64,000 nt of DNA. Source: Dyella sp. (GTDB taxonomy: Bacteria > Pseudomonadota > Gammaproteobacteria > Xanthomonadales > Rhodanobacteraceae). Positions 9,247 to 55,979 of the stretch are shown here, piece by piece. The position numbers and the translations under genes were made by a program. Numbering within the stretch: position 1 is the first letter of the stretch; every line of letters starts with the position of its first letter. The notes beneath the pieces were generated by a model, which was not told the origin of the DNA, searched no databases, and saw only the letters and a program-made list of their open reading frames with translations. The stretch spans positions 16,952 to 80,951 of the forward strand of contig NZ_JBQCHP010000065.1 of assembly GCF_051954575.1 (NCBI RefSeq). The letters are read 5' to 3'.

Positions 9247-9316
9247 CGTCATTCCGGCGAAGGCCGGAATCCATGCTTCGTACTGGCGATGGATTCCGGC
9301 CTTCGCCGGAATGACG
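9247..9316. repeat. CGTC REP doublet, short spacer
   Basis: CGTCATTCCGGCGAAGGCCGGAATCCAT-GCTTCGTACTGGCG-ATGGATTCCGGCCTTCGCCGGAATGACG. Confidence 0.92.
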
Positions 9317-12781: not shown

Positions 12782-13561
12782 ATGCCACGATCGCCACGGT
12801 TCGACCTTGCCCATGTGCCGCAGCACATCATCCAACGCGGACATGACGGCGAGGAATGTTTTCGCCTACCGGCCGACTGCCGCTGCTATCTAGCGCAATT
12901 GCTGCATGCCAGCCGGCGCTGGGAATGCAGCGTGCATGCGTACGTGTTGATGCGCAATCACGTGCACCTGCTGGTGACGCCCTCGCGCGTGGGTGCGCTG
13001 GCCGGCATGATGCAAGCGATCGGTCGCAATTACGTCAGCTACTTCAACACCATGTACCGGCGTTCTGGCACGTTGTGGGAAGGGCGCTACAAATCCTGCC
13101 TGATCGGCACCGAATACGTGCTCACCTGCCAGCGCTACATCGAGTCCAATCCGGTGCGCAGCGGTTGGATGCCGAGGCCGTTGTCGTATCCGTGGTCGAG
13201 CTACGGCAGCAATGCGCTGGGCGCGTCCGATCCGGTGGTGGTGCCGCATGCGCAGTATCTGGCTCTGGGGCAGTCGTCGGAGCAGCGCGCGCAGGCGTAT
13301 CGCTGCTTGTTCGAGCTGGATATCGATCCTGTGATGCTGCGGGACATCCGCGCCTATGTGCAGCAACAACGTGCGCTGGGTTCGCCGGTGTTTCAGAGCT
13401 GGGTGGAGGCGACCTTCGGCCGGCATGCCAAGGTGCGGCCGGCGCATCGGCCGCGGCGGCAGGTGGAGGTGATGGAGCAGAGCGTGCCGGATATGGACGC
13501 TTGCAGAACCTATCCAAGTGAGTCCCTCTCCCTGCGGGAGAGGGTGCCGAGAGGCGGGTGA
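12782..13561 (+). mobile_element. Y1 HUH transposase of RAYT/IS200-like type (QRG...YIExNPVR clade)
   Basis: HIIQRG, AYVLMRNHVHLL (HUH), LWEGRYKS, YIESNPVR (catalytic Tyr); GGGAGG RBS before ATG 12782. Confidence 0.88.
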
Positions 13562-27749: not shown

Positions 27750-28056
27750 CTGATATATCCCCACGTTTTTGCTTAGCGCTTCTTGTCTCTGCAAAAACGA
27801 AAACGTTCATGCTGGAGGGCCGCCCAAAAAGCCCAAAAGTCATTCCGGCGAAGGCCGGAATCCATGCTTCGTACTGGCGATGGATGATTCGCTTCGCTCA
27901 CCCCTTCGGGGCCGTCCTTCGGACGTTCTCCGCGCTGCGCGCTACGTCCGGCCTTCGCCGGAATGACGGTGAGGCGATATGAGCGATTGCGCACAGAAAT
28001 GGTTAGTCCGCTGATTTCGCTCAACATATCAGGTGAAAAACGTGGGGATATTTCAG
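27750..28056. mobile_element. 307 bp transposase-less element (MITE or IS remnant) with 21 bp terminal inverted repeats
   Basis: CTGA(T/A)ATATCCCCACGTTTTT at 27750-27770 and inverted at 28036-28056; flanked by GGTGC(G/A)GACC direct repeat. Confidence 0.75.
27838..27968. repeat. CGTC REP doublet carrying a 61 bp insertion
   Basis: Same arms and same 14 bp spacer as 9247-9316; extra sequence 27886-27946 inside the right arm. Confidence 0.85.
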
Positions 28057-32126: not shown

Positions 32127-32245
32127 CGTCATTCCGGCGAAGGCCGGAATCCAGTCTCAATACACGTCCGAAGGACACGACATCTTTATGCGGTGTGCTG
32201 CGCACATCGTATTTAAACTGGATTCCGGCCTTCGCCGGAATGATG
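32127..32245. repeat. CGTC REP doublet with long structured spacer
   Basis: CGTCATTCCGGCGAAGGCCGGAATCCAG ... CTGGATTCCGGCCTTCGCCGGAATGATG; a degenerate family B REP follows at 32264-32283. Confidence 0.9.
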
Positions 32246-50226: not shown

Positions 50227-51015
50227 TCAGTGACGGAGCACGAATGCCGCACCGGCGCCCGGGCGGTAGCCGTTTTTCAGCGCGCGTTGCACATAGGCGA
50301 TGGCGCGGCGCACGGCCTGGCGCGGCGTTGAACCGCTGGCCAGTTGCGCGGCGATGGCCGAGGCCAGCGTGCAGCCGGTGCCGTGGCCTTCGCGTGCAAG
50401 GCGGGGATGGCGGATGTCCAGCGTACCTTTGGCGTCGAGGTAGCGATCGACCACCTCATGATCGCGTCCATGCCCGCCTTTCAGCAGGACGCTGCGAGCG
50501 CCGAGGGCAAGCAAGGCCTTTCCCGCGTCCGCAAGTTGCTTCGAGGTTTTCAATGGGCGTCCTAGCAGGGCTTCGGCTTCCGGCAGGTTGGGCGTCAGCA
50601 CGTCGGCGAGCGGGATCAGTTCATGGATCAGCGCATCGACCGCATCTTCGTCGAGCAGGCGCGAACCGCTGGTGGCGATCATCACCGGATCGACCACCAC
50701 CCAGGCCGGTTTGCGCTTGCGCAGTTCCCTGGCGACGAGCCGTACCGTCGCGGCGTTTCCCAGCATGCCGGTTTTTACGGACGCGATCGGGAAATCATCG
50801 AACACCGCGTCGAGCTGGCTGCGGATATGCGCAAGCGGAACCGGATGCACGGCCGTGACGTTGCGCGTGTTCTGCGAGGTGATCGCGGCGATGACGGATA
50901 GCCCATGCACGCCGTGCGCGTGGAAGGTTTTCAGGTCGGCCTGGATGCCGGCACCACCGCCGGAATCGGAACCGGCGATGGTGAGGGCGATGGGCGGTTG
51001 CTTGGAGGATGCCAC
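50227..51015 (-). CDS. thiD: hydroxymethylpyrimidine/phosphomethylpyrimidine kinase
   Basis: [43 protein letters not shown]; GTG start chosen outside the REP. Confidence 0.95.
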
Positions 51016-51026
51016 GCTTTTTTGCT

Positions 51027-51054
51027 CGTCATTCCGGCGAAGGCCGGAATCCAT
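51027..51054. repeat. CGTC REP, left flank of the GIY-YIG gene
   Basis: CGTCATTCCGGCGAAGGCCGGAATCCAT, directly abutting the TAG stop. Confidence 0.92.
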
Positions 51055-51345
51055 CTATCTCAGTGCTGGATACAGGTCGATCCAATGAGGATTTTCCTCC
51101 TCAATCAACCTGATCTTCCAGTTACGCTTCCAGTTTTTGATAGCCTTTTCGCGAAGTATGGCCGATTCCATGGTTTCATGAAGTTCGAGCCATACGAGCC
51201 GATGCACGTCGTATCGGTTGGTGAAACCCTCAACGACGTGATTTTTGTGCTGCCAGACACGCTTGATCAGGTCGCTCGTGACTCCGATGTAAAGCGTGCC
51301 TCTTCTGCCGCTGCTTAGGATGTAAACGCAAGGTTGCCGATCCAT
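51055..51345 (-). CDS. stand-alone GIY-YIG nuclease (96 aa)
   Basis: CVYIL...[30 protein letters not shown]. Confidence 0.92.
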
Positions 51346-51358
51346 GGCTAGATTCCAA

Positions 51359-51426
51359 ATGGATCCCGGCCTTCGCCGGGATGACGTTTCGCTTCGAAAG
51401 TCATCTCGGCGAAGACCGGGGTCCAT
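51359..51426. repeat. CGTC REP, right flank (51359-51386, inverted), plus a third degenerate unit (51399-51426)
   Basis: ATGGATCCCGGCCTTCGCCGGGATGACG; AGTCATCTCGGCGAAGACCGGGGTCCAT. Confidence 0.88.
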
Positions 51427-51456
51427 CACCGTGATAGGGATTGAGATGCACCGGAA

Positions 51457-52836
51457 TTACAACGCCTCCGACGCAAAATCCGCCAGGCGCGAACGTTCGC
51501 CACGCCGCAGCGTGATATGCGCCGAATGCGCCCAATGCTTGAAGCGATCCACCGCATACGTCAAACCCGAGGTGGTTTCCGTAAGGTACGGCGTATCGAT
51601 CTGCTCCACATTACCTAGGCACACGATCTTCGTGCCGGGGCCGGCGCGCGTGATCAGCGTCTTCATCTGCTTCGGCGTGAGGTTCTGCGCCTCGTCGATG
51701 ATGAGATAGCGTGAGAGGAAGGTGCGTCCGCGCATGAAGTTGAGCGAGCGGATCTTGATGCGCGAGGCGAGCAGATCGTTGGTGGCCTGGCGTCCCCAGC
51801 TGCCGCCTTCTTCCGGGTTGGCGAGCACTTCGAGATTATCGGTGAGCGCGCCCATCCACGGCGTCATCTTTTCTTCCTCGGTGCCGGGCAGGAAGCCGAT
51901 GTCTTCGCCGACCGACACGGTGGCGCGCGTCATGATGATTTCGCGATAGCGCTGCTGGTCCATCACCTGCGCCAGGCCGGCGGCGAGCGCGAGCAGCGTC
52001 TTGCCGGTACCGGCGGTGCCGAGCAGGGTGACGAAATCGACGTCCGGATCCATCAGCATGTTGAGCGCGAAATTCTGTTCGCGGTTGCGCGCGGCGATGC
52101 CCCACACGGCGTGGTTGCTATGGCTGTGGTCATCCATCAGTACCAGCGTGGCGCGCACTTCATCCACGTGCAGTACGCGCAATTCCACGCTGTCGTCGCC
52201 GGGCAGGAACAGGCACTGGTTCGGATACCAGTCTTCGTCCTTGCGCCGGTCGAACTTGTAGAAGGTGCGCCCGCGCTCGTTCCACGATTGCACTTCCGGA
52301 TGGCGATCCCAGAAATCCTCCGGCAATTGCGCCGAGCCGGTGTAGAGCAGGGCAAAATCGTCCAGTGCGCGATCGTTCTCGTAATCCTCCGCATCAATGC
52401 CGTAGATCTTGGCCTTGATGCGCAGGTTGATGTCCTTGGTGACCAGGATCACCGAACGACCCGGATTTTCTTCCTTCAGCTCGATGACCGCGGAAAGGAT
52501 CAGGTTGTCGGCCTTGCCGTGTCCGTTGGTGGTGCGCTGCTGGAAATAAAGCCGCCCAACCGCTGCGCCACGCCGGAGCGAAATGCCTTCAGGGCTTTGC
52601 AGTTCCAGGCCATTGCTGATGCCATGACCATTGCCGCGTTCGATCAGTTCATTGAGGAAGCGGCTGACCTGGCGACCGTTGCGCGAAACTTCCGAGGCGC
52701 CTTTTTTCTTTTCGTCCAGTTCCTCCAGAACCGTCATCGGAATGAAGATGTCGTGCTCCTCGAAGCGGAACAGCGACGTCGGGTCATGCAACAGCACGTT
52801 GGTGTCGAGAGCGTAGATGCGCTTGCTTCCGGTCAT
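51457..52836 (-). CDS. PIN-PhoH family protein (PhoH2/YlaK-like)
   Basis: LDTNVLLHDP (PIN), GTAGTGKT, FMRGRT, DEAQN, GN..QIDTP. Confidence 0.93.
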   Translation of the reverse strand: MTGSKRIYALDTNVLLHDPTSLFRFEEHDIFIPMTVLEELDEKKKGASEVSRNGRQVSRFLNELIERGNGHGISNGLELQSPEGISLRRGAAVGRLYFQQRTTNGHGKADNLILSAVIELKEENPGRSVILVTKDINLRIKAKIYGIDAEDYENDRALDDFALLYTGSAQLPEDFWDRHPEVQSWNERGRTFYKFDRRKDEDWYPNQCLFLPGDDSVELRVLHVDEVRATLVLMDDHSHSNHAVWGIAARNREQNFALNMLMDPDVDFVTLLGTAGTGKTLLALAAGLAQVMDQQRYREIIMTRATVSVGEDIGFLPGTEEEKMTPWMGALTDNLEVLANPEEGGSWGRQATNDLLASRIKIRSLNFMRGRTFLSRYLIIDEAQNLTPKQMKTLITRAGPGTKIVCLGNVEQIDTPYLTETTSGLTYAVDRFKHWAHSAHITLRRGERSRLADFASEAL

Positions 52837-55861: not shown

Positions 55862-55979
55862 CGTCATTCCGGCGCAGGCCGGAATCCAGTTTCAATAAAC
55901 CGTGCGGAGCACTCGAAACCGGTTTCGTGTCCTTCGGACAGCGTATTTGACCTGGATACCGGCCTGCGCCGGAATGACG
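55862..55979. repeat. CGTC REP doublet with long structured spacer
   Basis: CGTCATTCCGGCGCAGGCCGGAATCCAG ... CTGGATACCGGCCTGCGCCGGAATGACG; spacer homologous to the reverse complement of 32154-32217. Confidence 0.9.

Follow-up and report, generated by a model that had tools for sequence, protein, structure and literature searches.

A GIY-YIG nuclease gene framed by CGTC-tagged hairpins in Dyella: a probable member of the Ssn family beside its cognate repeats

Do the CGTC-tagged palindromic repeats of bacteria (CGTC REPs) have an enzyme of their own? For over a decade they were said to have none, the conclusion drawn by Di Nocera et al. (2013, BMC Genomics 14:522; PMC3733652), until the description of the Ssn nucleases supplied a candidate in 2025 (Chenal et al., Nat Commun 16:2388; PMC11893778). 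The question is raised again by a locus in a stretch of 64,000 nucleotides from a Dyella genome (hereafter the window), in which a small nuclease gene stands between two inverted copies of such a repeat. A first-pass annotation of this DNA had stated that no dedicated mobiliser is known for CGTC REPs, which matches the 2013 conclusion but not the 2025 report. A literature search pairing GIY-YIG nucleases with REP repeats returned no match, and a search for follow-up work on Ssn found none in the literature covered.

The gene, ssn (51055..51345, minus strand), encodes a single-domain GIY-YIG nuclease of 96 amino acids, very probably of the Ssn family (Pfam PF01541, E 8e-15). Its TAG stop touches, with no gap, the left CGTC-tagged hairpin repeat (51027..51054, plus strand), an SRM/NTS-like REP, and its ATG is separated by a leader of 13 nt (51346..51358, minus strand; read, like the stop, directly from the sequence) from the right hairpin repeat, an inverted copy (51359..51386, minus strand). 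On the plus strand, the left unit reads CGTCATTCCGGCGAAGGCCGGAATCCAT and is identical to the exact consensus CGTCATTCCGGCGAAGGCCGGAATCC, and the right unit reads ATGGATCCCGGCCTTCGCCGGGATGACG; the two 28-nt arms are 93% complementary, with both tags, CGTCAT in the left unit, directed outward and away from ssn. Folded as DNA, each unit forms an 8-bp stem with a GAAG loop, at -8.9 kcal/mol (z -3.65) on the left and -9.7 kcal/mol on the right. Ten nucleotides beyond the right unit begins a degenerate third unit (51397..51427, plus strand), which is 82% identical to the left one and does not fold alone, while paired with the right unit it gives an 85-nt hairpin of -29.9 kcal/mol. It probably represents the left half of an adjoining doublet that has decayed, and in the closest relative (G011) the third unit is intact at the same intergenic junction. 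This junction is formed by thiD (phosphomethylpyrimidine kinase; 50227..51021, minus strand; PF08543, E 2e-90) downstream and a PIN-PhoH ATPase gene (phoH; 51457..52836, minus strand; PF02562 and PF13638) upstream, on the same strand as ssn. A scan of 50900-51600 revealed neither a sigma-70-like promoter nor an intrinsic terminator. The first-pass annotation had described the reading frame between outward-tagged repeats, the abutting stop, the 13-nt distance and the degenerate third unit, and in all of these the anatomy given here bears it out.

The repeats also leave a trace in gene annotation, as they translate into spurious N-terminal extensions (for example MMDPGLRRDD...) on adjoining reading frames. 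The first residues of the listed thiD frame are translated repeat (repeats at 51022-51054), and the ssn frame carries a repeat-derived N-terminal extension, MMDPGLRRDDFRSETSSRRRPGSIWNLA (repeats at 51346-51429). The true thiD start is probably a GTG near 51021; in repeat-free relatives, thiD starts at an ATG where the CGTCAT tag stands here.

What kind of nuclease does the gene encode? PF01541 spans residues 5-78 of the 96, leaving no extra domain, and an AF2 model (pLDDT 91) adopts the GIY-YIG fold, its best PDB fold matches being UPF0213 BH0048, Slx1 and the UvrC N-terminal domain. Among PDB sequences no relatives of the protein were found, nor was any NCBIfam model. The Ssn proteins are likewise single-domain GIY-YIG proteins, of about 94 amino acids (cd10448; PMC11893778). 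Three residues, Y8, Y19 and E66, are nearly invariant in an alignment of 42 sequences and are spaced, at 11 and 47 residues, as Y6, Y17 and E64 of SsnA, a match of spacing rather than of a direct alignment; the N. meningitidis SsnA mutants Y6A, Y17A and E64A are inactive (PMC11893778).

The likeness extends to the DNA on either side. The Neisseria repeat NTS was defined as CGTCATTCCCGCGMAVGCGGGAATCYRG and generalised to a degenerate Ssn-related motif (SRM), HGTCWYN(0-2)YYVSBRHN(0-5)WNVSBRGN(0-2)RNCYNB, which flanks 71% of Ssn homologs and stands on both sides in 42% (PMC11893778). The left, right and third units of the window all match this pattern, and ssn has in common with ssnA a product of about 95 amino acids with a single GIY-YIG domain, an equal spacing of the two catalytic Tyr residues and the Glu, inverted hairpins of the form CGTCATTCC-stem-GAAN-stem-GGAATCC on both sides, hundreds of such hairpins per genome, and a correlation between gene presence and repeat abundance. 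The differences lie in the host, here a soil gammaproteobacterium (Dyella, Rhodanobacteraceae), and in the presence of three paralogs in one genome, each beside a distinct doublet class. We therefore consider it very likely that the reading frame is a member of the Ssn family, that the flanking CGTC REPs are its cognate SRM and that the two live in an arrangement resembling the RAYT/REPIN partnership; the placement in the family is based on the Pfam match, the protein length, the fold, the spacing of the motifs and the accompanying repeat. As such, the locus is a clear further example of the published Ssn/SRM system and no new category of element.

The repeat is a major component of this genome (G000; a draft of 5.06 Mb, 62.5% G+C), with about 345 units, nearly all of them extragenic, and a consensus of CGTCATTCC[G/C]GCGAA[N]GC[C/G]GGAATCCA. 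The bases at stem positions 9 and 18 change together, being G:C in 174/172 units and C:G in 77/78. The SRM pattern matches the genome 255 times, compared with 19-22 times in second-order Markov simulations, and 100 shufflings of the window gave no match to the repeat pattern. Most units occur as doublets. Adjacent units are arranged in the manner of the ssn cassette, with the tags outward in 129 of 132 pairs genome-wide, and they fall into three main doublet classes: one with an 18-nt spacer, GAAG loop and CCAT tail (n=10), one with a 25-28-nt spacer and the stem variant CCCGCGAAAGCGGG (n about 33), and one with a 61-70-nt spacer, mostly a GAAC loop, a CCAG tail and two small inner hairpins (n about 60). 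Within each class, the spacers are conserved and structured; the CGTC doublets are REPIN-like. The window itself holds a gene-less doublet of the 18-nt class with GAAG loop and CCAT tail, the subtype of the units flanking ssn (9247..9316), two gene-less long doublets, one with a 67-nt spacer and two inner hairpins (32127..32245) and a second at 55862-55979, and an interrupted gene-less long doublet (27838-27968), all located by the repeat pattern. Gene-less doublets in the orientation of the cassette had been listed for these four sites and for position 212, and all but the last are confirmed, as position 212 holds a degenerate single unit only.

The hairpin units, in turn, carry insertions of their own. 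Short repeat families of about 26-60 nt lie within CGTC units, right after ...GGCCGG, at C106:11696-11867, C126:24267-24397, C74:15449-15580, C78:37299-37430, C133:16387-16530 and C25:35639-35803 of this genome and at 27943-27968 of the window (examples are GGCGCTTTTCAACAGCGAAGCTGGTCAATCC, ACGTAGCGCGAAGCGCGGAGAACGTCCGAAGGACGG... and CACGCGGGGAGAGCACAGGGATGTGCTCGG...), and the same inserts are present in the relatives G016 and G018. Each of them ends in ...ATCC and thereby restores the 3' stem of the unit, and they resemble nested mini-elements for which the repeat is the target. A long doublet at C124:24351-24705 contains a MITE-like insertion of 355 nt with terminal inverted repeats of about 30 nt (AAGGCAACACTGATCAAGTATCGCCGTCGTC...).

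Is the proximity of nuclease and repeat more than chance? The genome has three ssn-type GIY-YIG paralogs: the window copy, a copy on contig C93 that is 73% identical to it, and a copy on contig C73 (C73:47271-47560) that is frameshifted in appearance and probably a pseudogene. The window copy adjoins GAAG/CCAT units, the C93 paralog stands between two complete long GAAC doublets, and the C73 paralog follows a short CCCGCGAAAGCGGG doublet, outside it, with flanking repeats that match the published Neisseria NTS consensus. The CCCGCGAAAGCGGG class with its 25-28-nt spacer, which adjoins this frameshifted paralog, still counts about 33 copies in the genome. One could argue that the flanking is coincidental, in that REPs occupy the spaces between genes and a small gene happened to receive one on each side, and the abundance of the repeat and its nearly exclusive extragenic position would agree with this. 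However, all three paralogs lie at most 67 bp from a repeat, compared with 2.8% of random 290-bp windows having one within 150 bp, which puts the joint chance at about 2e-5. Furthermore, 68 of 80 homologs collected across phyla carry the hairpin within 400 bp, and the association has been published at scale (PMC11893778), so that coincidence is hardly credible and the specific association of a dedicated GIY-YIG nuclease with CGTC-tagged repeats is real, as the first-pass annotation had supposed.

Repeat number follows the gene as well. In a set of 41 genomes from the genus and the order, those with more ssn copies tend to hold more repeats (Spearman 0.70, p 4e-7; 0.73 within the genus), with medians of 107.5 repeats per genome with ssn and 5 without, the exceptions being G004, with 169 repeats and no detectable ssn, and G003, with ssn and only 14 repeats. 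An SRM-type hairpin lies within 250 bp of 27 of the 40 ssn copies from Dyella and its related genera within the order, about 27 of the 80 cross-phylum homologs keep the hairpin(+)-gene-hairpin(-) layout of the window, and the hairpin-to-gene spacing is conserved from phylum to phylum. The expectation that repeat number tracks the gene is thus upheld, while the accompanying idea that repeat sequence varies with nuclease phylogeny holds in part. Locally, a distinct Dyella ssn clade is flanked by the repeat variant CGTCG[T/C]CCCGGCGAA[A/G]GCCGGG[A/G]CCCAG, but genome-wide the abundance of this CGTCGY variant does not follow the clade that it flanks: G002 and G001, which do not have this clade, still hold 134 and 64 CGTCGY units. 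The pairing of nuclease and repeat is therefore not strictly one-to-one.

A close analogy for such a partnership is the RAYT/REPIN system, in which, as Nunvar in 2010 and Bertels and Rainey in 2011 are said to have described, REP-associated tyrosine transposases go with GTAG REPs. Both combine a nuclease gene with its own hairpin repeats on either side; in both, the repeats mostly form inverted doublets of fixed spacing, one genome can hold several families of nuclease and doublet, and the gene descends vertically under purifying selection. The locus is no RAYT/REPIN member itself, as its enzyme is a hydrolytic GIY-YIG protein rather than an HUH/Y1 transposase and its tag is CGTC rather than GTAG. 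Moreover, the nearest CGTC repeat is 3.6 and 7.3 kb away from the genome's two Y1_Tnp matches (Pfam; IS200/RAYT type), which makes these RAYT-like genes unlikely mobilisers of it; they are located at 12905-13150 of the window (C65:29856-30101) and at C50:50555-50878. The repeats agree with the CGTC REP superfamily (PMC3733652) in their CGTC palindromes, CCA-type tail, mostly extragenic position and dimers. They differ in the enzyme, which was said to be absent there and for which the 2025 Ssn work and this locus now give a candidate.

How long has the gene been at this place? Comparison of the thiD-phoH junction in 23 Dyella genomes finds the hairpin-ssn-hairpin cassette in the same place and orientation in 7, a compact junction of 0-22 nt without repeat in 6, repeats only in 6, other repeat families in 3, and one repeat plus a 1.3-kb insert in 1. 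The three genomes with other palindromic families (G002, G004 and G013; L014, L016 and L024), for example GGTTGGGGTGCGAACCCCAAC, hold no CGTC units at the junction, which acts as a sink for repeats in general. The empty junction proposed for sister strains thus exists, in sister species, and the cassette is not fixed, since occupied genomes have unoccupied sisters at 100% support (G014/G022, G019/G006 and G016/G021); on the thiD+phoH tree, occupancy changes at least 5-6 times. Among the junction orthologs, dN/dS is 0.03-0.18, with dS above 1 and synonymous sites saturated between species, and the window ssn behaves like a long-kept gene under strong purifying selection rather than a recent insertion. 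The junction ssn of G015 has an in-frame stop, and that of G011 a Gly-to-Arg change at a nearly invariant position. The ssn tree (94 columns) is poorly resolved and compatible with one or several origins of the junction copies, and its resolved parts agree with the flank tree (G016 with G019, G000 with G011). Together with the saturated dS, this agreement allows the pattern to be explained by ancestral presence plus losses, and ancestral presence with repeated loss is probably the simplest reading of the junction. The same history is typical of RAYTs.

The junction also bears on a reading in which ssn, as a selfish and free-standing nuclease of the homing type, invaded a doublet that was already in place, the repeats being its target and not its product. 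Consistent with this, G007, G017 and G018 have a gene-less doublet at exactly the thiD-phoH junction, and doublets in the window's genome host other small elements, namely the nested stem inserts and the 355-nt MITE-like insertion. However, the protein has no DNA-binding domain such as homing GIY-YIG enzymes need, and SsnA spares duplex DNA (PMC11893778). The conserved hairpin-gene distances, moreover, fit a co-inherited unit and not repeated insertion into doublets of varied spacers, and the gene has been under purifying selection over long times. We regard this reading as very improbable. Homing enzymes of the I-TevI type, Slx1 and UvrC do share the catalytic fold, the latter two being among the best structural matches, whereas ssn is without an extra DNA-binding, zinc-finger or partner-binding domain; as a single 96-aa domain encoded in a chromosomal intergenic position, and not in an intron, intein or phage, it does not belong to the homing GIY-YIG endonucleases.

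Whether the cassette itself moves is a separate question. The first-pass annotation had proposed an autonomous mobile element in the 360-bp hairpin-ssn-hairpin cassette, from which the gene-less doublets of 70-120 bp would derive, being non-autonomous and copied in trans by hairpin nicking followed by host repair or replication. Evidence that the cassette has moved as a unit comes from G018, which has three cassette copies where the window's genome has one (C1:1957095, 2340779 and 4793732; L158-L160). They are 93-96% identical to one another, share hairpin, leader of about 20 nt, gene and abutting hairpin, and lie within a wider mosaic of repeats that again has CGTC tags at its outer ends; the three copies are recent. 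The same layout and distances (hairpin, about 13-20 nt, ATG...stop, hairpin) recur in the window and at the three G018 loci, about a third of the cross-phylum homologs keep the exact layout, and the doublets point their tags outward as the cassette does. The junction is empty (at most 22 nt, no repeat) in six species, some of them sisters of occupied ones, with the repeated changes of occupancy noted above. Cross-phylum homologs reach 77% protein identity, and all three paralogs have about 50% G+C in a genome of 62.5% (the earlier hand count of 120/240 for 51061-51300 is exact), which together point to wide horizontal transfer of ssn with its hairpins. Homologs of 68-77% identity occur in MAGs labelled Dehalococcoidia, Bipolaricaulota, Streptomycetaceae and Planctomycetaceae (L080, L084, L097, L100, L102, L106 and L146), most of them with the same hairpins. 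The idea has a precedent, as Chenal et al. likened NTS-ssnA-NTS to an insertion sequence and compared it with RAYT/REP systems in their discussion (PMC11893778).

Several observations stand against an autonomous cassette. The saturated and selected junction orthologs are sufficiently explained by ancestral presence and losses; the spacers of the doublets are unrelated to the inner ends of the cassette; and two paralogs lie outside doublets, the C93 copy between two and the C73 copy beside one. No target-site duplication is visible at occupied or empty thiD-phoH junctions, and genome-wide numbers of the repeat variant do not follow the ssn clade that it flanks. Relatives show synteny on just one side of each G018 copy, so that no clean insertion site can be defined; the copies thus mark the edges of variable regions or places of rearrangement. 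Finally, we know of no strand-transfer chemistry in hydrolytic GIY-YIG enzymes. The proposal, as first put, is thus not borne out in its claim that the doublets derive from the cassette, and we consider an autonomous cassette possible, though doubtful.

A different reading takes the nuclease as a host gene and the repeats as host-serving marks that spread by other means, the enzyme restricting incoming single-stranded DNA (in transformation, conjugation or infection by ssDNA phages) or shaping recombination, as in Neisseria. In its favour, the lowered transformation by hairpin-flanked DNA in Neisseria is the only biological effect demonstrated for an Ssn enzyme (PMC11893778), and strong purifying selection, vertical descent and the position of the G018 copies at synteny breaks also count for it. 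It leaves unexplained, however, why repeat number scales with ssn copy number and why each paralog stands beside its own doublet class, and we judge it unlikely.

How might an Ssn enzyme act on these repeats? The four purified homologs cleave single-stranded DNA only, on the tag-carrying strand only and next to the hairpin, the cut falling 5' of the CGTCATTCC...GGAATCC hairpin, and SsnA leaves duplex DNA uncut (PMC11893778). By homology, the Dyella enzyme would be expected to share this specificity for ssDNA, recognising the folded hairpin with its CGTCA tag on the strand that reads CGTCATTCC...GGAATCC and cutting it by hydrolysis a few nucleotides 5' of CGTC. Because the tags face outward, a cassette or doublet would offer one cleavable site on each strand, just outside the 5' end of that strand: at the element's left edge on the top strand and at its right edge on the bottom strand. 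A gene with a doublet on either side would be bracketed, together with one of the doublets, by two sites on a single strand. Possible outcomes include copying of the repeat, its excision or pruning, and restriction of incoming single strands. As a hydrolytic nuclease cannot join DNA alone, any mobility would presumably need host replication or repair. A selected, vertically inherited nuclease with a population of hairpins, and three paralogs beside different doublet classes, resembles RAYT/REPIN. One might propose that the Dyella CGTC doublets are still live as a REPIN-like population and rely on a hydrolytic, ssDNA-specific GIY-YIG nuclease to be copied or excised, with hairpin-ssn-hairpin as the autonomous unit. 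We offer this proposal tentatively and think it somewhat unlikely to hold as a whole.

Taken together, the locus ties CGTC-tagged repeats in Dyella to a dedicated nuclease and offers a convenient natural test bed for whether Ssn drives the spread of CGTC repeats, with three paralogs and doublet classes in one genome, sister species with and without the junction ssn, and a relative with three recent copies. If the tentative proposal is true, it would describe a transposition-like process without transposase chemistry, in which nicking outside extruded hairpins is combined with host replication or repair, and the three pairs of paralog and doublet class in this genome would constitute three parallel systems.
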